DNA from: Parcubacteria group bacterium Gr01-1014_8
GTDB lineage: Bacteria > Patescibacteriota > Minisyncoccia > Phycocordibacterales > UBA2100
DNA: 64,000 nt
Direction: 5' to 3'
NCBI GenBank assembly: GCA_007376385.1
Contig: VMGC01000005.1
Location: 32,001 to 96,000, forward strand
Shown here: piece by piece, positions 1,116 through 59,693 of the stretch
How the letters are laid out: each line of letters opens with the position of its first letter
Position numbering within the stretch: the first letter of the stretch is position 1
The notes under the pieces: generated by a model
What the model saw: the letters and a program-made list of their open reading frames with translations, nothing else
What the model was told of the DNA's origin: nothing
The model's database searches: none
Translations under genes and position numbers: made by a program

Positions 1116-3080
1116 ATGGTTGCGTCTTTTTTTGTTGCCTCGCTGATTTTGCCGCTTGTAGCAGGAGTTGCTGCGCTTCTTCTCCTGCGTACAAAAGCGG
1201 GTCACATGCTCACGCAATTGGTTTTTGCTCTCGGCGGCCTAAGCGGTGTCGTTGGCGCAACGTTGTTCTATGCGAGCGATGGAGCGAGCACCGTCGTTTT
1301 TCATACGGCACTCTTTAGTCTTGTTGTCGGGACGCTTTCAGTATTCTTTTTGGGAATTATATCCGTCGGTGTTCTTCTCACATCGTTGTATGCGCTTGAG
1401 GGTCTGCGCAGATACAAAAGCGTCTATTCACTCCCGTGGCTTGCCGTTGCGTCTGCTTTTTTCATATTCGGCATGCAGGCAACGGTCATGGCCTCCTCTG
1501 TTGCGGGTTTTCTCGTTGCGTGGGAGTTGATGTCCGTCGCCGCATATTTCCTCGTTATAGCGGATGGCACTGAAGAATCACTGCATGCAGGCTTCTCGTT
1601 TTTTATCATGGCGCACATCGGGTTCGCGAGTCTTGTCGCAGGATTTCTACTTCTTTCTGCGGGCAATCCCTTTGCAGAGTGGCCGGAAGTAGCGCTCGCC
1701 GCAAAAACCATGACGCCGGCGACGCTCTCCGTCGCGTTCTCGCTTTTATTCATCGGCTTCGGCTCAAAAGCGGGTCTTGCCCCGCTCCATCAGTGGCTGC
1801 CCATGGCGCATCCGCAAGCGCCGAGCCACGCTTCGGCGTTGCTATCCGGCGTCATGTTGAAAGTCGCGCTTTTTGGGTTCATTCAATCGCTGTTCTTGTT
1901 TCCATCGGTTCCCCTATCATGGGGCGTTGTTGTCCTTGTGGTAGGACTCGTGTCGGCTTTCTTCGGCGTTCTGCACGCAGTCGTCGAGAGCGACATGAAA
2001 CGAGTACTCGCATGGAGCAGCATCGAGAACATGGGCCTTATTTTCTCTGGCGTAGGCGCAGCAATGATATTGCGCACGTTGCCGTACGAGGCAGGACCCG
2101 TACTCGCATCATCTATCGCCATTTTCGTTGCGCTCCATATCATCAATCACTTTCTCTTCAAGAGCGGGCTCTTCATGGCTGCGGGCGTTATCGTATCGGA
2201 AGTGCATTCTCGTGACATGGATATCATGGGGGGTTTAGCGCAAAAGTGGCCCATCTTCTCCGGCGTTTTTCTAGCTCTCGCGCTCGCAGCGGCAGCGTTG
2301 CCTCCGTTCGGTACATTCTTTGGCGAGTGGATGTATCTGCAATCTCTCGCACTTGCGCTTGTCGGTCTGCCTTTGCCGCTTTCCGTCGTTGCGGGACTCG
2401 TCCTCGCAGCCGTCGCATTGGTGAGCGGCCTTGCTATCGTTGCGTTCGTAAAAATGTTCTCAAGCGTCTTTTTAGGGAGAGCTCGAAATGAACATGCGGA
2501 ACATGTGGGGATGATGCCAATGTCTCTTATGTGGCCGCCAATGGTGTGCGCGATTCTTTCGATTGTTGCCGGGGTGCTTGCATTTCCTTTTTTTTCATCG
2601 CATTTTATGGATGGCGCGAGCATCATGCAAGATGTCGTTATCGTACAAGGCGCCTCCATGAACGCTTGGATCCTGTGGGCGCTTATCGCGGGTCTTGCGA
2701 TCATAGCGCTTCTTCTCGCGCGTTTTCTTCGCGTGCCGGTTCGCATTACGGATACGTGGGATTGCGGGCAGCCGCTCACGTCGCGAATGGAATATACGGC
2801 AACTGGATTCTCGGCACCGTTCCGCTTTTTCTTCCGTGCGTTCTTAGTATCGCGAAAAGAAATGATCGTTACGCCTATCTCTTCAGAGAATCCGTGGATA
2901 GCGAACCGGCGTCTCGAGTGGAGCATTACCTCAACATGGGAGCGGCTCTTTTATCGCCCCGTCGGGCAGGCATTGCTTCGTTTTGCTGAATACGCGCGCA
3001 AGTTCCAAAGCGGCGTCGTCCAGATGTACCTTTTGTTTGTTGTTATCGCTCTTGTCGGAGCATTCATTTTTGCGCTATGA
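1116..3080 (+). CDS. HyfB/HycC-like (NuoL/MrpA family) antiporter-type membrane subunit.
   Basis: 654 aa polytopic protein with the WLPMAHPQAPSHASALLSGVMLKVALFG motif typical of HycC/HyfB. Confidence 0.8.
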   Translation: MVASFFVASLILPLVAGVAALLLLRTKAGHMLTQLVFALGGLSGVVGATLFYASDGASTVVFHTALFSLVVGTLSVFFLGIISVGVLLTSLYALEGLRRYKSVYSLPWLAVASAFFIFGMQATVMASSVAGFLVAWELMSVAAYFLVIADGTEESLHAGFSFFIMAHIGFASLVAGFLLLSAGNPFAEWPEVALAAKTMTPATLSVAFSLLFIGFGSKAGLAPLHQWLPMAHPQAPSHASALLSGVMLKVALFGFIQSLFLFPSVPLSWGVVVLVVGLVSAFFGVLHAVVESDMKRVLAWSSIENMGLIFSGVGAAMILRTLPYEAGPVLASSIAIFVALHIINHFLFKSGLFMAAGVIVSEVHSRDMDIMGGLAQKWPIFSGVFLALALAAAALPPFGTFFGEWMYLQSLALALVGLPLPLSVVAGLVLAAVALVSGLAIVAFVKMFSSVFLGRARNEHAEHVGMMPMSLMWPPMVCAILSIVAGVLAFPFFSSHFMDGASIMQDVVIVQGASMNAWILWALIAGLAIIALLLARFLRVPVRITDTWDCGQPLTSRMEYTATGFSAPFRFFFRAFLVSRKEMIVTPISSENPWIANRRLEWSITSTWERLFYRPVGQALLRFAEYARKFQSGVVQMYLLFVVIALVGAFIFAL

Positions 3081-3163
3081 CCCCATGAGAGAAACGATCT
3101 AAATTCTTATGAATCACACCAATTGTAACGAGATGCAGTGCTTCGCTCAGGATCATATCTATT

Positions 3164-3180
3164 TTTCTCACGGGGTATGA
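3164..3180 (+). promoter_or_regulatory. Conserved 17-bp intergenic motif, copy 1 (TTTCTCACGGGGTATGA); the ATG of the HycD-like gene is embedded in it.
   Basis: Matches the motif family TTATCTCAYGGGGTATA. Confidence 0.4.
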
Positions 3181-4124
3181 CCGTCACGATACTCATTTTG
3201 CAGTTCTTCTTAGTGCTCGCGGCAGCGCCCGCGACGGTGGGGATCGTGCGTAAAATAAAAGCGCGCTTTCAGAACAGGCGCGGCGCACGCATCACGCTTC
3301 CATACTGGTCGCTCCTTTCGTTGCTTCGAAAAGAAATGACCATCACGCGGCACAGTTCGTGGGTGTTTCGCATCGTTCCGTTCGTGGTCTTTGGAAGCGC
3401 ACTCGCGCTAGCAGCGCTTATTCCTTCTTTTGCTGTAGGAATTCTGGCCGCGAGCATGAGCAACATTTTTCTTGTCGGCGCCGTCGCCGCGCTCGGCTCC
3501 GCGTTCCTTGTTTTTGGCGGCATGGATACCGGAAGCACGTTCGGCAACATGGGCTCCAGCCGCGAGATGACGATAGCCTCATTGATAGAGCCTGCCGTAT
3601 ACGTATCGCTCGCTTCTCTTGCAACGCTCTCCGGTTCGTGGAGTTTGGATGGCATCGCACTATTTTTTGCCGCAAGTAAATGGGTGGAGATAATACTTCC
3701 GGCCTCACTTACGTTAGTGGCCCTCGTCTTTGTGCTGCTCGCAGAAAATGCGCGCTATCCGGTGGATAATCCTGCAACGCACCTTGAGCTCACAATGGTG
3801 CATGAGGCGATGGTCTTAGAATATTCCGGCCCATACCTCGCAATGCTCGAATACGCGTCGTGGATAAAATTGACTGCGATGCTGATGCTCGTGATGAATC
3901 TCGTAGCGCCGTGGGGTATTCTGACTTCTCCATTTGCTCTTGGGGCCACTCTCATCGCGCTCGTTGCATTTGCCATTAAGCTCGGCGTCGGTGCATTCGT
4001 CATTGCGTTCATCGAATCAACGATCGTAAAAATGCGCTTCTATCGAATGCAGGAATACATGTCTCTTGCGCTCATCGTTGCGCTCGGCGGTCTTGCTATT
4101 TCGCTTGTCTCAATTGCCGTATGA
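3177..4124 (+). CDS. HycD/HyfC (NuoH-like) membrane subunit.
   Basis: The N-terminus MTVTILILQFFLVLAAAPATVGIVRKIKARFQNRRG matches the HycD/NuoH start. Start set at the internal ATG at 3177 rather than the track start at 3138. Confidence 0.8.
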   Translation: MTVTILILQFFLVLAAAPATVGIVRKIKARFQNRRGARITLPYWSLLSLLRKEMTITRHSSWVFRIVPFVVFGSALALAALIPSFAVGILAASMSNIFLVGAVAALGSAFLVFGGMDTGSTFGNMGSSREMTIASLIEPAVYVSLASLATLSGSWSLDGIALFFAASKWVEIILPASLTLVALVFVLLAENARYPVDNPATHLELTMVHEAMVLEYSGPYLAMLEYASWIKLTAMLMLVMNLVAPWGILTSPFALGATLIALVAFAIKLGVGAFVIAFIESTIVKMRFYRMQEYMSLALIVALGGLAISLVSIAV

Positions 4125-4774
4125 GTGCGCAGCTTACATTCGACCTCCCGACATTATTTGCATGCGGCATGCTGCTTCTATCGTTGATAATGGTAAGCCG
4201 CATGCGTCTTTCGTCGCTTGTCGGTATTTTCCGTTACCAGAGCGCGCTTCTTGCCATCTATGCGGTCATCCTTGCGATCTCTCATGATGAACCAGAATTG
4301 CTCGCGGTCGCCCTTTTTATTGCACTTGTGAAAGTGGTCCTCATACCAGCGTTTCTCATTCGCGTCGCAAAGCAAAATGGCGTGTCAGAGAGGCTTGATT
4401 CGTATTTGCGTCCGACGACGTCCACATCAGTAGGTTTGGTTGCCATCCTTCTCGCGTTTGCCGGAGCAGAGGCGACATTTGCTACGAGCGCGGGGCTCAT
4501 CATAGTTGCGTGCGTTTTTGCTCTCATTCTGACGGGGCTTATTCTTCTCATTACGCGCAAAGACATGTTCGGGCAGGGAATCGGATTTCTCGTGATGGAG
4601 AACGGCATCTATGCATTCGGGCTCGCTCTTGCTGGCGGAATGCCCATCTTTGTCGAGCTTGCAGTTCTGTTTAACCTTCTTGCGCTCACCGTTCTGATGG
4701 TTCTGTTGTTCCGAGTCGCGCAAAAGGTCCACTCTTCTGTTTCAACCGAGCATTTTAAGCGACTCATCGATTGA
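4121..4774 (+). CDS. HyfE-like small membrane subunit (217 aa).
   Basis: Size, multi-helix hydrophobic profile and position between the HycD-like and HyfF-like genes. 4-nt ATGA overlap with the upstream gene. Confidence 0.6.
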   Translation: MSAQLTFDLPTLFACGMLLLSLIMVSRMRLSSLVGIFRYQSALLAIYAVILAISHDEPELLAVALFIALVKVVLIPAFLIRVAKQNGVSERLDSYLRPTTSTSVGLVAILLAFAGAEATFATSAGLIIVACVFALILTGLILLITRKDMFGQGIGFLVMENGIYAFGLALAGGMPIFVELAVLFNLLALTVLMVLLFRVAQKVHSSVSTEHFKRLID

Positions 4775-4775
4775 T

Positions 4776-6227
4776 ATGACTGTATCTCTGCTCCTCATGG
4801 TTATTCTTGTCGCTGCTGCGATGCCGTATCTCTGTGCCACAACGAAACAGGTGCGTTCGCTCGCGATGATAGGAAGTACGAGTATTTTCCTGCTTTCTCT
4901 CTTTGTCGGGATTCCGGCGCTGTTTGCTCCAGCCGCTGTTACCGGCGCGGGTTTGTGGTACATCGATGCTCTGGGCGGGTTCTTTGTTCTCTTGATCGGA
5001 TTCGTTCAGTGGACAGGGACGCTCGTAAGCATGACGTACATGAAGGAAGAAGAGGCGCACGGGACGGTAACCGCGGCTAAGGTCAAACGATACTTCGTAC
5101 TCTTGCATCTTTTCGTCCTCGCGATGATGCTTGCTGTCGTCTCGAATAACACAGGCATCGTGTGGGTTGCGCTCGAGGGCACGACGCTGGTGACGACACT
5201 CTTGGTCGGTTTTTACGAACGAAAAGAATCTCTTGAGGCTGCCTGGAAATATCTCATTCTGTGCTCATCGGGCATTGCGTTCGGATTCTTGGGAATTCTT
5301 GTCATGTTCTATGCGGCTTCGACGACGGGGGCGGAAGGCGTTATCGGCATGACGTGGTCAGGGTCGGCACTTCTTGAAGCGGCGCTTCCCGTAAGCGTCG
5401 TAAAGATAGCGTTTGTGCTCTTGCTGATAGGGTTTGGCACCAAGGTTGGTCTTGTCCCGATGCACGCCTGGCTCCCGGACGCCCATTCAAGCGCGCCATC
5501 GCCAATTTCTGGCATGCTCTCGGGGGTGCTTCTCAACGCCGCGTTATTGCCGATACTTCGTTTCAAAAATATTGTTGACGGCGTTGCCGCGCCTGGTTGG
5601 ACCGATCAGCTTCTCATCGTATTCGGGGTTCTCTCTATCGCGCTTCCTGCAGCGTTCGTACTTGTTCAGCGCGATTACAAAAGGTTGCTCGCATATTCGA
5701 GCATTGAACACATGGGGCTCATTACGCTGTCGGCAGGACTCGGCGCGATTGGTTCCGTCGCCGCGACAATTCACATTGCGGGTCACGCTCTCGCGAAATC
5801 TGCGCTCTTCTTTGCGGCGGGAAACATCCTCTTGAAATATCACAGCACTAAATTCGAGAATGTCTCGGGGGTTACACGCATATTGCCTTACACAGGAGGG
5901 CTCTTTCTCGTTGCATTTTTGGCGCTTCTCGGCGTTCCGCCTTCACCCTTGTTTGCGAGCGAATACTTTATGGCGGCTGCTGCGATAGGCACGCATCCCT
6001 ACGCCACCGGCGCCGTCTTTCTCGCCCTCACTATCGTATTTGCCGGATTTGTGCGGCTCTTGATGCCGATGTTGTTTGGGGAGAGTCCTGACAGAGGTGG
6101 GCGGGAGAGATGGAACATATCGCACACCGCTATCACGTTGAATATCGTTTTACTTATCGGACTTGGTATTGCTCTCTGGATTGCTCCTGGAGAGGCGATC
6201 ATCCAACGCATTGCAGAAATTATTTAG
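4776..6227 (+). CDS. HyfF/HyfD (NuoN/NuoM-like) antiporter-type membrane subunit.
   Basis: WLPDAHSSAPSPISGMLSGVLLNAALL motif; 483 aa polytopic protein. Confidence 0.8.
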   Translation: MTVSLLLMVILVAAAMPYLCATTKQVRSLAMIGSTSIFLLSLFVGIPALFAPAAVTGAGLWYIDALGGFFVLLIGFVQWTGTLVSMTYMKEEEAHGTVTAAKVKRYFVLLHLFVLAMMLAVVSNNTGIVWVALEGTTLVTTLLVGFYERKESLEAAWKYLILCSSGIAFGFLGILVMFYAASTTGAEGVIGMTWSGSALLEAALPVSVVKIAFVLLLIGFGTKVGLVPMHAWLPDAHSSAPSPISGMLSGVLLNAALLPILRFKNIVDGVAAPGWTDQLLIVFGVLSIALPAAFVLVQRDYKRLLAYSSIEHMGLITLSAGLGAIGSVAATIHIAGHALAKSALFFAAGNILLKYHSTKFENVSGVTRILPYTGGLFLVAFLALLGVPPSPLFASEYFMAAAAIGTHPYATGAVFLALTIVFAGFVRLLMPMLFGESPDRGGRERWNISHTAITLNIVLLIGLGIALWIAPGEAIIQRIAEII

Positions 6228-6231
6228 AAAT

Positions 6232-7752
6232 ATGACCATTCAATCACTCACACAAAGGATCGGGATCGCGGGAAAAGACTTCGTACTAGTTCCTCGTGAT
6301 GACCTGCACCGGCATGCAGAAGTTTGCGTTGAGGCAGGCGCTCCTCTCATGTTCATGTACGCAACAGAAGAGGCGAACGGATTTGTGGTACATGTAGTAT
6401 TTTCCGCAGAAGACGGCTTTCTGACATTGAAGGCGGAGCTGCCGCGCGATGATCCGACGTATCCGTCGCTCACTCGCAGTATCATGGCAGCGCATTGGTA
6501 TGAGCGATTGATGCATGACCAGTTCGGCATAGTTGCAGAGGGGCACCCCGACTGGCGACGACTCATACACCACGAGAATATCCCTGAAGGCACGCATCCG
6601 CTCCGTAAAGATTTTGCGTGGAATACGAAGCTTCCGCATGCGAATGTTCCGTACCCGATGCACGCAGTCACTGGAAAGGGAATTTATGAAGTTCCGGTCG
6701 GGCCGATACACGCAGGAATAATTGAGCCGGGCCACTTTCGTTTCAACGTTCGCGGAGAGAGAATTCTGACGCTCGAAGGAAAACTGTTCTTCAAGCATAA
6801 GGGCGTCGAGAAATTGGTTGAGGGAAAGACACCGGAGGAGGCTTTTCCCTTCATCGAAAGAATTTCTGGCGACATGGTCGCCGGGCATGCACTCGCGTTT
6901 GCGGAAGCTGTTGAAGCTGCATCTGGAGTCGCCATATCAGCGCGTGCGAAACATCTGCGTGTCCTGTGGAGCGAATTGGAGCGAGCAACGGCGCATGTTT
7001 TTGATATGGGGAATATGGGAGGCAACGGCACAGGATTTACATTCATGGCGGCACAAGGCTTTCGCATGGTCGAAGATATGCGTCGTTTGTATCAATCGCT
7101 CGTAGGGCACCGATTCTTGCGAGGCGCTATTGTGCTTGGCGGCGCGCATGATATTTCTGAGGGTGATGTTGAGAAGATCCGTGCCGTGATAGATGATATT
7201 GAGCGAGACATGAAAAAAGTTCTCGCAATTGCGTATGGAAGCGACGGGCTTATGGAGCGGTTTGAAACGACGGGAATTCTTTCACTTGAGGCCGCGAAAG
7301 CATACGGGGCGCGGGGAACGCCAGCGCGGGCGTCAGGGGTTACTCTCGATATACGAACGGGTCATCCCTATGCCGCGTACAAAGAGTTAGGAGTGAGCGT
7401 GGTGACTGAAAAAGGCGGCGATGTCGCGGCACGCTTCAAGGTCCGCGACAGGGAACTCACGGAGTCGTTCCGTCTTATCCGCGAAGTATTGAGAACTCTT
7501 CCGAAAGGCGAGGCGAAAACGAATTCCAATTTCAAACAGGGGAGTGCGCTCGGCGCAGTTGAATCATGGCGCGGCGCTATCATTGACTGGGTGAGGCTTG
7601 ATGCGGAAGGAAGAATTGACCGCTGTGCAATTTCAGACCCATCGTTCTGTAACTGGTCTCTTTTTGGCGAACTTGCGCCTGGCAACATTGTCCCGGACTT
7701 TCCTTTGTGTAATAAGAGTTTGAACCTTTCGTATTCAGGGACGGACCTCTAA
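6232..7752 (+). CDS. Fused NuoC-NuoD / HycE-like large-subunit homolog with both [NiFe] CxxC ligand motifs degenerate.
   Basis: The L1 motif RxCGxCxxxH reads RISGDMVAGH here. The L2 motif DPCxxC reads DPSFCN. Start set at ATG 6232 just after the upstream stop at 6227. Confidence 0.8.
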   Translation: MTIQSLTQRIGIAGKDFVLVPRDDLHRHAEVCVEAGAPLMFMYATEEANGFVVHVVFSAEDGFLTLKAELPRDDPTYPSLTRSIMAAHWYERLMHDQFGIVAEGHPDWRRLIHHENIPEGTHPLRKDFAWNTKLPHANVPYPMHAVTGKGIYEVPVGPIHAGIIEPGHFRFNVRGERILTLEGKLFFKHKGVEKLVEGKTPEEAFPFIERISGDMVAGHALAFAEAVEAASGVAISARAKHLRVLWSELERATAHVFDMGNMGGNGTGFTFMAAQGFRMVEDMRRLYQSLVGHRFLRGAIVLGGAHDISEGDVEKIRAVIDDIERDMKKVLAIAYGSDGLMERFETTGILSLEAAKAYGARGTPARASGVTLDIRTGHPYAAYKELGVSVVTEKGGDVAARFKVRDRELTESFRLIREVLRTLPKGEAKTNSNFKQGSALGAVESWRGAIIDWVRLDAEGRIDRCAISDPSFCNWSLFGELAPGNIVPDFPLCNKSLNLSYSGTDL

Positions 7753-14112: not shown

Positions 14113-14130
14113 TATACCCCGTGAGATAAC
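14113..14130 (-). promoter_or_regulatory. Conserved motif, copy 2 (minus orientation); divergent partner of copy 3.
   Basis: TATACCCCGTGAGATAAC on the plus strand, upstream of the minus-strand small membrane-protein gene. Confidence 0.5.
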
Positions 14131-14198
14131 TGTTTTCGAGCTACACAAGATGTTAGGACACAGTAAAATATTTAATTCGTCAACAAGCTATACACGTC

Positions 14199-14216
14199 TT
14201 ATCTCATGGGGTATAG
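14199..14216 (+). promoter_or_regulatory. Conserved motif, copy 3 (plus orientation); its TATAGT ends 11 nt before the ATG of the SET-domain gene.
   Basis: TTATCTCATGGGGTATAG. Confidence 0.5.
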
Positions 14217-14227
14217 TCTCTCCCTCT

Positions 14228-14656
14228 ATGCGTGCGCAAATACTGCAGACGCGGTTTGCTATTCGACGCTCCAAGCCGGGCCTGGGCTATGGGTTATTTG
14301 CCACGAACGCGATACCTGCAGGAGAGTTCGTGCTCGAATACAAAGGGCGTCACGTACCGACGGAAACGGCGGACAAGCTCAAAACTAAGTACCTTTTTGA
14401 GATAGACAGCTCATGGACCATCGACGGTTCAACAAGGGCGAATACTGCGCGATACGTGAATCACTCCTGCGCCCCGAATTGCGAGGCAGACGTACGAGAT
14501 GGGAAAGTGCTTATTTTTGCCAACCGGGAGATCGAGGCGGGGGAGGAGCTGACAATCGATTACGGAGAAGAATATTTCAAAGAGTTCATTGAGCCGCACG
14601 GCTGCAAGTGCGACCGCTGCAAGCACCCTCGGCTCGCATTCTGGCGCCGCTCGTGA
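14228..14656 (+). CDS. SET-domain protein (lysine methyltransferase fold) with a post-SET Cys cluster.
   Basis: GLGYGLFA, NHSCxPNC, ELTIDYG and C-terminal CKCDRC motifs. Confidence 0.7.
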   Translation: MRAQILQTRFAIRRSKPGLGYGLFATNAIPAGEFVLEYKGRHVPTETADKLKTKYLFEIDSSWTIDGSTRANTARYVNHSCAPNCEADVRDGKVLIFANREIEAGEELTIDYGEEYFKEFIEPHGCKCDRCKHPRLAFWRRS

Positions 14657-24258: not shown

Positions 24259-24948
24259 TTAGGCAGGATCACGCTTGAGCCAGTGAACGCCTGCGTACAC
24301 AAGCGGTGTTACAAGTGCGGACATGACGTTTTTCAACATCCAATACGGAAGGATGATGCTCCAAAGAAACGCGGCATTATCACCGAACGATGTACCGAAC
24401 GAATAGAACGCGAGAACAATGAATACGACCGTGTCGACGAATTGCGCCAGAATATTCGAGACATTGTTGCGGAGCCACAATTTTGAAGCTCCGAGCGCTT
24501 GCCGTATACGCGAGAACAGATAGACGTCGAAGAATTGCGAAATGGCGAACGCTGCAAGCGAGGCGAGGGACATGCGGATAGAGAACGTGAAGATGGTGTC
24601 ATACGCGGCTTCTGATGAAGCGAATCGTGTGGAAGGCGGAAGCGCGGTAACTAAGAGCGCATAGAGGAGAAGGAGCACTATGGCAAAAAGACCGGAGCGA
24701 ACGACGCTGCGGGCGCGTGCGGGCCCGAATACTTCCGTGATGATGTCGTTGATGGAAAATATGAGCGGGACCGTGAAAATCGCAACTGATGCGTTAAGTC
24801 GGAACGGCCACTCCAAAAGCGGAAACGTTTTCGCGCCCATTAACTCGGCTGCGGCAACGCAGAAAATGTAGACAGCGATGAGCAGGTCCATCCTTCTCAT
24901 CCCAAAGAACGTCGCTGAGGGACCTTGCACGCTTTGTGCGGGAGGCAT
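24259..24948 (-). CDS. YhhQ/DUF165-family membrane protein (queuosine-precursor transporter family).
   Basis: Polytopic membrane protein with YhhQ-like conserved segments. Start taken at MPPAQ..., 7 nt downstream of a TATACT hexamer. Confidence 0.55.
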   Translation of the reverse strand: MPPAQSVQGPSATFFGMRRMDLLIAVYIFCVAAAELMGAKTFPLLEWPFRLNASVAIFTVPLIFSINDIITEVFGPARARSVVRSGLFAIVLLLLYALLVTALPPSTRFASSEAAYDTIFTFSIRMSLASLAAFAISQFFDVYLFSRIRQALGASKLWLRNNVSNILAQFVDTVVFIVLAFYSFGTSFGDNAAFLWSIILPYWMLKNVMSALVTPLVYAGVHWLKRDPA

Positions 24949-24955
24949 GGCGGGC

Positions 24956-24975
24956 AGTATACCCCATGAGATAGG
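24956..24975 (-). promoter_or_regulatory. Conserved motif, copy 4 (minus orientation); its TATACT is 7 nt before the ATG of the YhhQ-like gene.
   Basis: AGTATACCCCATGAGATAGG on the plus strand. Confidence 0.5.
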
Positions 24976-25042
24976 CACGTTCTACCATCTCGAGTGGCGG
25001 AATGTTGCGACGCCTGTTCAGATCTTCAAATAGAGAACTCAT

Positions 25043-25061
25043 TTATCTCACGGGGTATAAC
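25043..25061 (+). promoter_or_regulatory. Conserved motif, copy 5 (plus orientation); its TATAAC is 6-8 nt before the ATG/GTG in front of DHFR.
   Basis: TTATCTCACGGGGTATAAC. Confidence 0.5.
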
Positions 25062-25102
25062 GTGCAAATGTGCGACTGCAACAAGCGGGTATACTGAGAT
25101 GC

Positions 25103-25699
25103 ATGGAGAAGGCGGAACGTTGTGCAATTCATAATCAGCGTCAGCCTTGTGGAATATGCCGGGTGCTGCGGAATCAAAGGATTGGCCCTGAAAAGGGCAC
25201 AGGAATAGTTTCCGCTATCGCGGCAATCGGAAAGAATAGAGAACTTGGAAAAGGAAATGAATTGTTGTGGCGCATACCTGATGATATGAAGCGGTTCAAG
25301 AAGCTCTCGATGGGGCATCCAATAATTCTCGGGCGAAAAACATTTGGATCCATCGTCAGGGCTATCGGGAAACCACTGCCTGGACGCACAAATATCGTGG
25401 TGACGCGTGATGCGAAGTGGTCGTACGACGAAGTAATTGTTGCAAAATCTCTTGAAGAAGCGCTAGAAAAGGCCAAAGGTGCACCTGGTTCGGAAGAGAT
25501 CATTATCGGCGGGGGCGCGCAGATATACAAACAAGCACTTCCGTACACAACCAGGCTCTATTTGACATTGATAGATGATGAGGGCGAGGCGGATTCTTTT
25601 TTTCCGGAGTATGAGGATGAGTTTACGATCAAGCTCAACGAGGAAAGGCACGAGTGGAACGGCTTGAAATACGTGTGGGTCGACCTCGAGAGAACTTGA
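25103..25699 (+). CDS. folA: Dihydrofolate reductase; start codon uncertain (ATG 25103, GTG 25070 or GTG 25163).
   Basis: IVSAIAAIGKNRELGKGNELLWRIPDDMKRFKKLSMGHPIILGRKTFGSI. The homologous core begins near 25205, so any of the upstream starts gives an N-terminal extension. Confidence 0.75.
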   Translation: MEKAERCAIHNQRQPCGICRVLRNQRIGPEKGTGIVSAIAAIGKNRELGKGNELLWRIPDDMKRFKKLSMGHPIILGRKTFGSIVRAIGKPLPGRTNIVVTRDAKWSYDEVIVAKSLEEALEKAKGAPGSEEIIIGGGAQIYKQALPYTTRLYLTLIDDEGEADSFFPEYEDEFTIKLNEERHEWNGLKYVWVDLERT

Positions 25700-33798: not shown

Positions 33799-33820
33799 AG
33801 TATACCCCTGAGATAAATCC
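33799..33820 (-). promoter_or_regulatory. Conserved motif, copy 6 (minus orientation); its TATACT is 6 nt before the ATG of the secreted W/C-rich protein.
   Basis: AGTATACCCCTGAGATAAATCC on the plus strand. Confidence 0.5.
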
Positions 33821-33862: not shown

Positions 33863-33885
33863 AGTTAGCCCCGTGAGATAAAGCG
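33863..33885 (-). promoter_or_regulatory. Conserved motif, copy 7 (minus orientation, variant TTAGCCCCGTGAGATAA); divergent partner of copy 8.
   Basis: Core CCCCGTGAGATA conserved. Confidence 0.4.
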
Positions 33886-33949
33886 ATTAAATATTGCTAG
33901 TCGTGTCGAGATTGATAATATTGTTTGGGCGATGCAAACACTCGTTTTT

Positions 33950-33970
33950 TGTTATCTCATGGGGTAAAAT
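33950..33970 (+). promoter_or_regulatory. Conserved motif, copy 8 (plus orientation, ends TAAAAT), 33 nt upstream of purB.
   Basis: TGTTATCTCATGGGGTAAAAT. Confidence 0.5.
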
Positions 33971-49453: not shown

Positions 49454-49476
49454 AGTCTACCCCATGAGATAAGACC
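49454..49476 (-). promoter_or_regulatory. Conserved motif, copy 9 (minus orientation); its TAGACT is 8 nt before the ATG of the P-type ATPase.
   Basis: AGTCTACCCCATGAGATAAGACC on the plus strand. Confidence 0.5.
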
Positions 49477-49537
49477 AAAACCTTCCCGCCCTAATCGGTG
49501 TGAGTAAGGGAATAATTTTGTCTGAAAAGACCTATTT

Positions 49538-49558
49538 TCTTATCTCACGGGGTATAGA
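49538..49558 (+). promoter_or_regulatory. Conserved motif, copy 10 (plus orientation), about 155 nt upstream of the LTD-domain secreted protein gene.
   Basis: TTCTTATCTCACGGGGTATAG followed by ATGATGA. Confidence 0.5.
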
Positions 49559-54474: not shown

Positions 54475-54497
54475 AGTATACCCCGTGAGATAATAAA
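54475..54497 (-). promoter_or_regulatory. Conserved motif, copy 11 (minus orientation); its TATACT is 18 nt before the DedA ATG.
   Basis: AGTATACCCCGTGAGATAATAAA on the plus strand. Confidence 0.5.
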
Positions 54498-55489: not shown

Positions 55490-56728
55490 ATGTCTGAAAA
55501 GAAATTTCCTGAAGGATTTTTATGGGGCGCAGCGACTGCTTCGTACCAAGTTGAAGGCGGTATCGAGAATTGCGACTGGGCGAAAGCTGCTCGAGAAGGG
55601 AGGGTGCCAGAGTGCGGGCGAGCGTGCGACCACTACAATCGCTATGAAGCCGACTACGATATTGCAAAATCACTCGGGCACAACTGTCATCGGATCTCTA
55701 TCGAGTGGGCGCGTCTAGAGCCGGAGGAGGGGAAATTCGATGAGAAAGAAATTGAACACTACCTGGCTGTTCTTGCTGCACTCCGCGAGCGCCGCTTGAA
55801 GCCGTTCATCACGCTTTGGCACTTTACACTTCCGCAGTGGTTCGCCGACAAGGGCGGATTTGAACACCCTGATGCTCCGGAAATATTCGCACGGTACTGC
55901 GGATATGTCGCGCGAAAATTGGGGAATGATTGCCGTCATTTCGCGACCATCAACGAGCCCATCCCCTATGCTTCCAACGGTTGGCGGCGCGGGATATGGC
56001 TTCCATTTAAGAAGTGGCCGGGAATTGACACCATAGCGATCGCAACCTCAGGTCGCGAATTAGACCCGAGGCCAGAGACGAGCATAGCGAATATCTTCAA
56101 GTATTTTTCAGTCATAAATACGCTCATTCGCTCGCACAACGCGGCGTATGATGCGATAAAGAAATCGGCGTTCGGAGCAGAAGTGGGCATCGTACACCAA
56201 GTCCTTCTATTCCACTCGAATGGAAATCCATGGAATGTACTCCTGGCGCGCTTAATGAATTGGCACTTCACGCATTATTTTATAAAGCGTGTTTATAAAA
56301 AGTGTGACTCGATTGGCGTTAATTATTACTTGCACAAGAAATTCGGCGATACCGTCGTCTATGACAAGACGGATATGGGTTGGGACGTATATCCGGAGGG
56401 AATCCGCGAGGCGCTGCTTATGGTCAAGCGCTACGGACTGCCGCTGTGGGTCAGCGAGGCGGGTGTCGCGGACGCGAAAGACACAATTCGTGCCGAATAC
56501 ATCAAGGGGCTCGTTCGCGGCACGTATGACGCGATGCAGGAGGGCGCCGATGTGCGCGGTTTTATGTACTGGTCGCTTCTCGACAACTATGAATGGGCGT
56601 CCGGATTCGGGAAACGGTTCGGACTTGTGGAGATAGATTACGATACGCTCGAAAGGAGAGTCCGTCCGTCGGCGTACGTGTATAAACAAATCATCGAACA
56701 GAATGGCTTGGTAGACTCCGTGAGATAA
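55490..56728 (+). CDS. Glycoside hydrolase family 1 (beta-glucosidase-like).
   Basis: FLWGAATASYQVEGG N-terminal signature, TINEP acid/base and VSEAG nucleophile regions. Confidence 0.85.
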   Translation: MSEKKFPEGFLWGAATASYQVEGGIENCDWAKAAREGRVPECGRACDHYNRYEADYDIAKSLGHNCHRISIEWARLEPEEGKFDEKEIEHYLAVLAALRERRLKPFITLWHFTLPQWFADKGGFEHPDAPEIFARYCGYVARKLGNDCRHFATINEPIPYASNGWRRGIWLPFKKWPGIDTIAIATSGRELDPRPETSIANIFKYFSVINTLIRSHNAAYDAIKKSAFGAEVGIVHQVLLFHSNGNPWNVLLARLMNWHFTHYFIKRVYKKCDSIGVNYYLHKKFGDTVVYDKTDMGWDVYPEGIREALLMVKRYGLPLWVSEAGVADAKDTIRAEYIKGLVRGTYDAMQEGADVRGFMYWSLLDNYEWASGFGKRFGLVEIDYDTLERRVRPSAYVYKQIIEQNGLVDSVR

Positions 56729-56797
56729 ATTCGTTGCGCTTGGCGGGGAGGCTTCTCGCATATTGCCAACATTCGACTGTGAAAAAGTCCGCGCGCA

Positions 56798-56816
56798 TTA
56801 TCTCATGGGGTAGAAT
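56798..56816 (+). promoter_or_regulatory. Conserved motif, copy 12 (plus orientation); its TAGAAT is 6 nt before the ATG of the DMT-like gene.
   Basis: ATTATCTCATGGGGTAGAAT. Confidence 0.5.
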
Positions 56817-58778: not shown

Positions 58779-59591
58779 ATGTCCTTTGTGATATTCGATT
58801 TGGGCGGTACCAACTTGCGCATAGGTGTCTCGCGCGATGGCAGCAAAGTAGACGACATGAAGTCTGTGCCGACGCCGCCGAAATTTGAAGACGGCGTTAA
58901 TACTATTGATAGCGTCGGCAAAGAGTTGCTTGGAGGAAATACGGCGACCGCTGTTGCAGGCGGTATCGGATGGTCACTTGATCAGAGCCGCTCCTCAATT
59001 TTCAATTCAACGAAGAAAAATCTTATGGATTGGAGCGGAAAGCCGCTTAGAGATGAGCTTGCAGCCAGGTTCAAAGCGCCGGCAACTCTCTATAATGACG
59101 TTGCCCTTGTCGGTCTTGGGGAAGCACACAGCGGGGCAGGGAAGGGTTCATCTATTCTTGCGTACGTTACAGTTTCGACTGGAGTCAACGGCGTTCGCAT
59201 CGTAGATGGGAAAATAGACAGAGCGACATACGGGTTTGAAACAGGAAAGCAGATAATTTCTGCAGGAAAATTAGAAGATCTCGTATCAGGTACTGCGGTG
59301 ACAAAAAAATTTGGCATCCACCCGAAGGACCTGGATTCGCTCGATGAGAGAAATAAACTCGGCGACTTGCTTGCAGAAGGCTTATTCAACACCATTCTGC
59401 ACTGGTCGCCGGATACGATCGTTCTCGGAGGTTCGATGATAATTGGCAAGAATCCGATTCCGATCCCGCGGGTGATGGAGTCTCTGGCGAGAATCCAAAC
59501 AATTTATCCGACAACGCCGCGCATCGTCATGGCGGCGCTTGGTGACAATGGCGGACTGGAAGGCGCCCGCGTTCTCGCAACAATGAGGTAA
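58779..59591 (+). CDS. ROK-family sugar kinase-like protein.
   Basis: MSFVIFDLGGTNLRIG N-terminal ATP-binding motif and ROK-like glycine motifs. Confidence 0.65.
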   Translation: MSFVIFDLGGTNLRIGVSRDGSKVDDMKSVPTPPKFEDGVNTIDSVGKELLGGNTATAVAGGIGWSLDQSRSSIFNSTKKNLMDWSGKPLRDELAARFKAPATLYNDVALVGLGEAHSGAGKGSSILAYVTVSTGVNGVRIVDGKIDRATYGFETGKQIISAGKLEDLVSGTAVTKKFGIHPKDLDSLDERNKLGDLLAEGLFNTILHWSPDTIVLGGSMIIGKNPIPIPRVMESLARIQTIYPTTPRIVMAALGDNGGLEGARVLATMR

Positions 59592-59608
59592 ACCCCGTGA
59601 GATAGGAC
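59588..59608 (-). promoter_or_regulatory. Conserved motif, copy 13 (minus orientation, variant); overlaps the stop codon of the ROK gene. Divergent partner of copy 14.
   Basis: GTAAACCCCGTGAGATAGGAC on the plus strand. Confidence 0.35.
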
Positions 59609-59672
59609 ATAGTCCATCGCTCACACGACGTCGTTATGCTACCAACATTGGATGCTTAGCGGGGGTCAGATT

Positions 59673-59693
59673 GCATATCTCATGGGGTAAACT
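59673..59693 (+). promoter_or_regulatory. Conserved motif, copy 14 (plus orientation); its TAAACT is 7 nt before the ATG of the 33-aa micro-ORF.
   Basis: GCATATCTCATGGGGTAAACT. Confidence 0.5.

Follow-up and report, generated by a model that had tools for sequence, protein, structure and literature searches.

The stretch of DNA analysed in the current work, hereafter the window, comprises 64,000 nucleotides of contig VMGC01000005.1 from Parcubacteria group bacterium Gr01-1014_8. It contains housekeeping genes for NADH dehydrogenase subunits (nuo), purL, purB, DHFR, glnA, a P-type ATPase, GH1 and ROK, and is syntenic with a Candidatus Kaiserbacteria metagenome-assembled genome (MAG) at 65-72% nucleotide identity. 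The window also belongs to a metagenome contig of 189,832 bp. No tRNA and no Rfam 15 match at the gathering score was found in the window, and an Rfam comparison at a relaxed E-value returned only chance matches to miRNA hairpins. At the locus from which the analysis started, a short open reading frame (ORF) and a histidine kinase gene to the left diverge from a SET-domain gene to the right, whose ATG is at 14228, and between them stand two outward-facing copies of a motif that recurs throughout the window. The analysis described here indicates that this motif is most probably the terminal inverted repeat, 13 bp in length (CCCCRTGAGATAA ... TTATCTCAYGGGG), that bounds a family of miniature transposable elements without an ORF; of these elements, the window contains seven complete copies of a 95-bp size class and two solo ends.

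The 17-mer TTATCTCAYGGGGTATA is matched 14 times in the window at no more than three mismatches, as compared to 0.15 matches expected, and none of 100 shuffled sequences reached this number. The claim of an earlier note that a 17-bp motif is repeated at least 14 times was thus borne out, and two further copies were obtained when the search was performed with the 13-nt core TTATCTCAYGGGG, which occurs 16-17 times in the window. These are 3081-3093(-), which had not been listed before, and 33804-33816(-), which carries a 1-nt deletion and had been listed at 33799; some of the other coordinates had been placed about 2 nt off. Fourteen of the 16 good copies form seven outward-facing pairs, the remaining two being solo ends (Table 1), so that the divergent, paired layout reported earlier stands while the number of pairs rises from five to seven. 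In every pair the 13-bp ends are within two mismatches of the consensus. As had been stated, the sequence between the paired copies is not conserved: no mutual similarity was found among the interiors in the window, and their folding z-scores are near 0 on both strands, being no better than those of shuffled sequence. The copies are nearly all intergenic, as had also been claimed, with the exception that the left ends at 3081, 56716 and 59593 touch or overlap the stop codon of the upstream gene.

Table 1. Element copies and solo ends in the window, with the position and length of their parts.
Feature	Position	Strand	Target-site duplication	Left 13-mer	Interior (bp)	Right 13-mer	Sequence and context
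Element 1	3076-3180		TATGA (3076-3080, 3176-3180)	3081-3093 (CCCCATGAGAGAA)	69	3163-3175 (TTTTCTCACGGGG)	
Element 2 (locus of the finding)	14113-14215		TATA on both sides	14117-14129	69	14199-14211	
Element 3	24958-25059		TATA on both sides	24962-24974	68	25043-25055	
Solo end	33804-33816	-					1-nt deletion (TTATCTCA-GGGG), then TATACT, 6 nt and the ATG of a 369-aa gene
Element 4	33865-33968			33869-33881	70	33952-33964	Upstream of purB (ATG 34004)
Element 5	49456-49556			49460-49472	67	49540-49552	
Solo end	54481-54493	-					TTATCTCACGGGG followed by TATACT; upstream of a VTT/DedA-like gene
Element 6	56712-56814		TAGA (56712-56715, 56811-56814)	56716-56728	69	56798-56810	
Element 7	59589-59691		TAAA (59589-59592, 59688-59691)	59593-59605	69	59675-59687	

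The sequence immediately outside the 13-mers carries the kind of mark that an insertion event would leave. Perfect, non-palindromic 4-bp direct repeats flank 25 of 211 pairs, where 1.5 are expected and the maximum in 1000 shuffles was 6, and a further 23 of the 211 pairs have the palindromic TATA on both sides. When all pairs were pooled, the duplication test was obscured by this palindromic TATA. The duplicated target is TNNA, 4-5 bp in length, and is retained by five of the seven copies in the window (Table 1); element 5 is flanked by TCTA and TATA, which differ by one base, and element 4, flanked by TTAG and TAAA, has no intact duplication. In three window pairs, the sequence that resembles a -10 hexamer is simply the duplicated target (TAGA followed by AT, TAAA followed by CT, and TATGA), and the degenerate '-10' sequences at non-promoter ends (TCTACC, TTTACC, TCATAG) are degenerate because they represent the reverse complement of that target.

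The positions of the individual copies with respect to genes can be read in the same manner. Element 1 occupies the operon junction between two NADH dehydrogenase subunit genes (Proton_antipo_M and NADHdh; flanks ctatga and tatgac), whose ends are the same in an independent gene call of another assembly; since its 5-bp TATGA duplicates the ATGA stop/start overlap, the upstream TGA and the downstream ATG are both kept and both nuo genes are intact. Element 6 interrupts the GH1 gene in its final codons; the gene now terminates as ..DSVR* on the TAA of the repeat, and in silico removal of the element leaves GTA GAA TAG gtca ATG, an ordinary operon junction. This insertion is kept at the orthologous site in the Kaiserbacteria MAG (locus L002), with intact ends and a completely diverged interior. 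Element 7 lies directly on the TAA stop codon of the ROK-family gene. Element 3 separates the divergent Vut_1 (yhhQ-like) and DHFR genes, and when it is removed in silico together with one TATA, the sequence reads CAT-ggcgggc-AGTATAAC-gtgcaa-ATG, in which 21 nt separate the two start codons on either side of a symmetric -10. The pre-insertion site reconstructed in this way (region 24948-25105) has the appearance of a leaderless promoter acting in both directions; the concept of bidirectional promoters has reportedly been described by Warman et al. in 2021. The DHFR start is uncertain because a second TATACT is followed after 7 nt by an in-frame ATG at 25090-25105, which may be the real start codon, the Pfam DHFR domain starting at residue 47 of the long ORF. 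The ATG of the P-type ATPase gene (49445) is 8 nt past the TAGACT adjoining element 5, and the solo end at 54481-54493 possibly has a decayed partner, containing TCTCAT, about 36 nt away.

Two observations on neighbouring genes may be recorded here. The SET-domain gene immediately downstream of element 2 (14228-14656) was assigned to PF00856 with an E-value of 2e-26. The NADH:quinone oxidoreductase subunit genes at 1116-7752 are found, alongside purL/purB and glnA, in what appears to be a genome of the candidate phyla radiation (CPR; Kaiserbacteria-like), and such a combination of nuo, purL/purB and glnA genes represents a metabolism richer than usual in Patescibacteria.

Outside the window, the exact pair was looked for, with gaps of 55-85 bp, in one genome of each species, and 72 loci were retrieved, mostly from MAGs of CPR/Patescibacteria and in some cases from long contigs labelled Phycisphaerae, Bacteroidota, Ignavibacteria, KSB1 or Verrucomicrobiota, with a locus GC content of 0.32-0.57 and a unimodal gap distribution at 69-70 bp. 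A metagenome scan allowing gaps of 30-90 bp yielded at least 120 loci, and among the matches listed the interiors fall into two sharp classes, namely one of 30-36 bp with its mode at 33 and one of 64-73 bp with its mode at 69-70, intermediate lengths being almost absent. The elements thus have total lengths of 59 bp and 95 bp and are ORF-less, more than 200 pairs being known outside the window. Because the elements come in two discrete lengths, what had been described as a fixed geometry is the length of the element: the spacing of 81-84 bp, which had been attributed to a nucleoprotein architecture, reflects one of two size classes (33 or 69-70 bp between the ends). Similarity between interiors was found only among local duplicates (for instance loci L015, L009 and L057). 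A search for the pair in 2.9 million viral contigs gave no match, and a phage origin was rejected on this basis.

Several of these loci place the pair inside genes for structured RNAs. The P3 helix of RNase P RNA holds a pair in L032, L035, L051 and L054, with a compensated variant in L065, and other copies are located in P15-17 of RNase P RNA, in the V2 hairpin of 16S rRNA, in 16S leaders and trailers, and immediately after an adenosylcobalamin (AdoCbl) riboswitch aptamer. In such RNAs the pair constitutes the base of long hairpins, and the interiors there are strongly structured. One to three element hairpins of about 95 nt are present per RNase P RNA gene (two in L035 at 830-1290, three in L182 at 330-1250; also in L054), while L065 has only a shorter P3 variant of the pair with a 45-nt interior (1284-1354). 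The occurrence of conserved RNAs with and without the element (L065 versus L024 for 16S V2, L182 versus L035 for RNase P sites) speaks for insertion. The element-bearing RNase P RNAs score 45-83 bits against RF00010, for which the gathering score is 100. CPR RNase P RNAs have been described as having large helix extensions and as falling below Rfam thresholds (PMC8172020), and the element family helps to explain both such extensions and the sub-threshold Rfam scores in CPR RNase P RNA and rRNA genes.

A number of further observations were made at these loci. In L013 (2700-3300), a nest of at least 13 ends occupies about 600 bp between divergent genes, and in L058 (300-680) 63-bp units, each made up of an end, 33 bp, a second end and TATA, are repeated in tandem upstream of hisS; both regions are partly masked as N. 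In L004 (1473-1636), a structured element copy comes immediately after the aptamer of an AdoCbl-II riboswitch and may serve as, or may have replaced, the expression platform of the riboswitch. A group II intron domain (RF01998) adjoins the CPR 16S rRNA gene of L024 (1278-1370). Around the element, the sequence of L014 (labelled Alphaproteobacteria) is the reverse complement of that of L017 (labelled Saccharibacteria), and L019 (labelled Bacteroidetes) agrees exactly with L065 (labelled Paceibacterota); such matching sequence under different phylum labels points to mis-binned short contigs, and the taxon labels of short loci therefore need care.

Clustering of the ORFs neighbouring the pairs revealed no transposase, yet in 10 of 192 loci, which represent at least 3-4 lineages, small GIY-YIG genes adjoin the pairs. 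The encoded protein was assigned to PF01541 (E-values of 1e-16 to 1e-18) and resembles the UPF0213 structures PDB 1zg2 and 1ywl (E-value 5e-8). A protein search returned 1477 homologs, the canonical members being 87 aa long and ending in ...YLTG. With a length of 81-96 aa, the proteins consist of the catalytic domain only, with no separate DNA-binding domain. DNA was then fetched around homologs picked by protein similarity alone, and repeat-bracketed ORFs were found in L195, L197-199, L200, L202 and L203, in the form of a cassette of approximately 280 bp in which GIY-YIG is the only gene. The left repeat of the cassette stands 1-6 nt before the ATG, and the right repeat corresponds to the last codons, TAT CTC ACG GGG TGA/TAA (YLTG, stop). 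The right repeat being the end of the GIY-YIG gene, the outer TGA/TAA/TAG of the 17-mer is a stop codon. In L182 the P3 hairpin of RNase P RNA consists of CCACGTGAGATAT, an 81-aa GIY-YIG ORF, and CTATCTCACGTGG/AGGAAAGTCC, and the CPR GIY-YIG gene of L021 has its own co-varying repeat dialect, AGCCCGTTAGAGAT.

The cassette is also inserted within protein-coding genes. It splits tyrosine-recombinase genes at one conserved site, between ..LRLRV and KDVDF.., in diverged paralogs (L197-L199 and L202; at about 680-965 or 380-665), and a Ser/Thr kinase gene at the glycine-loop coding motif GxGxxG-VYKA (L203, 374-664), a motif in which miniature pairs are found as well (L018, L029, L127). Both halves of the split recombinase and kinase genes still look conserved, a pattern suggestive of genes in pieces or of an RNA-level removal. 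In Phycisphaerae-like contigs, ORFs with HNH and AP2 domains, which look like homing endonucleases, stand beside a GIY-YIG gene and pairs (L015, 6815-7971; L052, 6837-7784).

The earlier note had interpreted the motif as a promoter element, with a -10-like hexamer at its 3' end and a start codon close downstream. In the window, TAnnnT follows immediately after 7 of 17 ends, with an ATG 6-10 nt beyond it for about six genes. Over 369 distinct ends, the four positions flanking the 13-mer on its outer side read TAAA in 60, TGAA in 56 and TATA in 53, and are unconstrained in the others. Only the TATA-type ends look like promoters: they read TATAcT (T at hexamer position 6 in 69%) with an ATG at +13 to +15, a weak TTGGAA is found 17 bp upstream of the hexamer, and in 15 of 29 such cases a start codon is located 10-14 nt past the repeat (p 3e-15). 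The hexamer-and-ATG arrangement therefore holds for TATA-type ends and not for the remainder, since the other ends show no start-codon peak and face gene starts, gene ends or nothing; in total, TAnnnT adjoins 39 of 218 ends in the 72 related loci and the window, 82% being without it. In related MAGs, promoter-like ends precede rpsP/KH, rpsL, a tRNA, hisS, gyrB, dnaJ and ftsI, and in L046 the end abuts a canonical TTGACT-N16-TATACT and not the -10. No promoter motif of the extracytoplasmic function (ECF) or another type was found downstream of ends with a TRAA flank, and an apparent interior motif, CAACATT, did not prove general; what remained was a weak TYGGAA together with a T at position -10 from the end.

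These observations can be combined in the following model. The miniature copies would be derivatives that are not autonomous and depend for their movement on machinery supplied in trans by the GIY-YIG cassette. Their inverted ends would be recognised in folded (stem) form, and this would account for the single G.T/A.C mismatch, which is conserved, as well as for the position left unpaired just past the stem. In a compact CPR (Kaiserbacteria-like) genome, insertions would survive in the TATA/TAnA core of the -10 boxes of leaderless genes and at gene junctions. Duplication of the target would regenerate a -10 hexamer at the edge of the element, and a -35 may be contributed by the TTGGAA found sub-terminally at 17 bp, so that the promoter would survive or would even be provided by the element. 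As insertions tend to fall in the TATA core of promoters, the element looks like a part of them, and for the -10/leaderless signal the best explanation is that insertion took place at operon junctions and in -10 boxes that already existed, within their TNNA core; co-option as a portable promoter may have followed.

In addition to terminal inverted repeats and a target-site duplication, the family shares with miniature transposable elements with inverted repeats (MITEs) that it is small, ORF-less and multicopy (7 copies in 64 kb), while interiors related by descent, also typical of MITEs, were not observed in the window. This last finding heads a set of points that weigh against a transposable element: unrelated interiors are unusual for a MITE family and imply that the ends are maintained by something other than recent common descent. 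The subtype with 17-bp repeats (TTYA/../TRAA), to which the GIY-YIG cassettes belong, shows no target duplication, and no GIY-YIG gene was found within the window. Exact-protein look-ups gave no empty site for the window copies, other assemblies of the same organism carrying identical insertions. To our knowledge, no prokaryotic GIY-YIG transposase has been described, and an 87-aa catalytic domain without an obvious DNA-binding module could make the nuclease a passenger rather than the engine. Finally, the transposable-element interpretation offers no explanation for the excess of heterotypic pairs described below. We tentatively propose, as a possibility that falls short of an even chance, that the 87-aa stand-alone GIY-YIG protein is the mobilising enzyme and reads a folded wobble stem of 13-17 bp; the cassette of about 280 bp would then be the smallest autonomous transposable element known and the first prokaryotic GIY-YIG DNA transposon, and its derivatives of 59 and 95 bp would have spread into the -10 boxes, rRNA and RNase P RNA of CPR bacteria, where they would serve as portable promoters.

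The alternative that survives best starts from the same mobile origin, and considers the elements as domesticated: a former transposon would have been kept because each end gives a -35 and an optimal spacer to the -10, and would thereby act as a portable, bidirectional promoter. Between the -35-like TTGGAA and the duplicated TAnA the distance is exactly 17 bp, the ends have stayed intact at orthologous sites where the interiors are saturated with change, and the window is dense in copies, located at the starts of housekeeping operons. Non-promoter ends are, however, equally conserved, element 1 lies within the nuo operon on an ATGA overlap, and the weak sub-terminal signal may be a mere family consensus; in our opinion domestication is a serious possibility that is nonetheless somewhat doubtful.

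The arms of a pair also differ from each other in a systematic manner, almost always by exactly one transition. Of the pairs with a target duplication, 37 combine a CAC arm with a CAT arm and are thus heterotypic, as against 11 of the C/C type and 0 of the T/T type (p 3e-5). When the CAC/CAT position forms a Watson-Crick pair, flank position +2 is usually mismatched instead (odds ratio 0.16, Fisher p 8e-7), and the first pair beyond the 13-bp stem is anti-complementary, being Watson-Crick in only 18 of 182 cases (p 5e-7). Internal variants are symmetric between the arms (GGG/CCC, GTGG/CCAC, GGGC/GCCC). The G.U version is on the sense/RNA strand in about 18 of 22 informative cases (p 0.004; hand tally), and the orientation of the G.T mismatch shows no replication-strand bias in the window (4 versus 3). 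Such features suggest that the folded stem is what is recognised, either by the mobility machinery or at the RNA level. A functional hairpin of RNA or single-stranded DNA, in which the 13-mers pair into a stem of 13-17 bp that acts between transcription units in processing, as a terminator or as a protein-binding module, would account for ends that are always inverted, for one wobble per stem, for the symmetric variants, the anti-complementary closing position and the strand preference, and for the strongly structured interiors of RNA-embedded copies. Most interiors are unstructured, though, a strong fold (z<-2.5) being present in 5% of short and 9% of long ones; four of the seven window pairs stand between divergent promoters, where no spanning transcript is expected; neither a U-tract nor an Rfam family is associated with the pairs; and the folded form may serve mobility and not a host function. 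A hairpin of this kind is consequently considered unlikely.

Still less probable is the proposal of the earlier note, namely a lineage-specific extended promoter, taken here as one in which the near-invariant 13-mer forms the spacer (-25 to -13), read by the housekeeping sigma factor, an alternative one or a general transcription factor, with the pairs as bidirectional units. According to our own gene map, a copy is present at about 11-12 of roughly 14 transcription-unit starts in the window, and the hexamer, start-codon peak and -35-like sequence at TATA-flanked ends, as well as the copies upstream of rpsP/KH, rpsL, a tRNA, hisS, gyrB and dnaJ in related MAGs, would all suit such a promoter. 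Against this, target duplications flank the copies and supply, with two further nucleotides, the hexamer of three window pairs; the pair on the ATGA stop/start overlap leaves no room for a promoter; left ends beside upstream stop codons drive no gene; most ends have no TAnnnT; and the end in L046 indicates that the position within a promoter is not fixed. Copies are furthermore present inside RNase P RNA, 16S rRNA and ORFs, and the identical sequence occurs in phyla with different promoter types. The special sigma or transcription factor that had been invoked thus finds no support: the 13-mers are read as terminal inverted repeats with target-site duplications, which bracket a GIY-YIG gene in full-length copies and also occur within RNA genes and ORFs. 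The resemblance to sigma-70 leaderless and bidirectional promoters, in the form of TAnnnT 6-8 nt upstream of an ATG and of the symmetric pre-insertion site of element 3, is accompanied by the difference that the 13-mer belongs to no known promoter consensus and shows the same conservation at sites without a promoter.

A system of repetitive extragenic palindromic (REP) doublets (REPINs) with their REP-associated tyrosine transposase (RAYT), or a DNA uptake sequence, is very improbable. CPR bacteria are naturally competent, and REPIN doublets have a conserved spacing. Inverted doublets, variable spacers and persistence at orthologous sites are features in common with REPINs (PMC3116915, PMC3337134, 10.1101/2022.05.22.493013). 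The arms of the present family are, however, non-palindromic, the 13-17-mer having no internal dyad; target duplications are present; no RAYT-like gene recurs among the neighbours, the associated gene being GIY-YIG; and an uptake sequence gives no reason for fixed pairing, duplications or an internal nuclease gene. DnaA boxes, parS, SlmA and CRP sites, Xer/dif, integron attC, CRISPR-like arrays, sigma-54 and T7-type promoters and tRNA-like structures were also considered, and none fitted in sequence or architecture.

The closest known systems to the transposable-element family proposed here are MITEs of the Correia type and REPIN-RAYT. Correia elements, which are MITEs of Neisseria, are ORF-less, have terminal inverted repeats, an AT-rich target duplication and two sizes, generate promoter hexamers with their ends and form hairpins when transcribed. 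The present family is likewise short and ORF-less, with inverted ends, a short AT-rich duplication, two sizes, a position adjacent to genes, and ends that abut -10/-35 hexamers. It differs in that interiors are conserved in Correia elements and unrelated between copies here, that the duplication is TA there and the 4-bp TNNA here, and that the autonomous partner is a DDE insertion sequence there, whereas here it would be a 280-bp GIY-YIG cassette; the ends of the present family are moreover shared across phyla. With REPIN-RAYT it shares inverted conserved arms, a preferred spacing, a less conserved spacer, many copies, long persistence, and a small nuclease gene flanked by repeats; REP arms are palindromic with GTAG and the enzyme is an HUH Y1 transposase, whereas the present arms are non-palindromic, the candidate enzyme is GIY-YIG, target duplications are found and the right arm lies within the nuclease ORF. 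Free-standing homing endonucleases of the T4 seg/mob type and UPF0213/YhbQ proteins have in common with the cassette the GIY-YIG domain (PF01541) and insertion between or inside conserved genes to give genes in pieces. Unlike GIY-YIG homing genes, the cassette encodes a protein of only 87 aa without a DNA-binding domain, has inverted repeats of 13-17 bp that overlap the stop codon, possesses abundant ORF-less miniature derivatives, and occupies many unrelated insertion sites rather than a single homing site. It is the combination of GIY-YIG partner, cross-phylum identity of the ends, two size classes and unrelated interiors that sets the family apart from both MITEs and REPIN-RAYT.

No published description of the element family was found in open-access papers and bioRxiv, whether by literal sequence or by concept. 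The analysis removes a false lead, in that what appeared to be a super-conserved promoter of a CPR genome is read as mobile DNA, and it brings to light an apparently undescribed family whose ends are conserved across phyla, which has two sharp sizes, and whose full-length form is little more than a GIY-YIG nuclease gene. It also provides a concrete, testable function for the widespread stand-alone GIY-YIG proteins of the UPF0213/YhbQ type, and a natural case, in streamlined genomes, in which promoter function is preserved, or donated, when a transposon inserts into -10 boxes.

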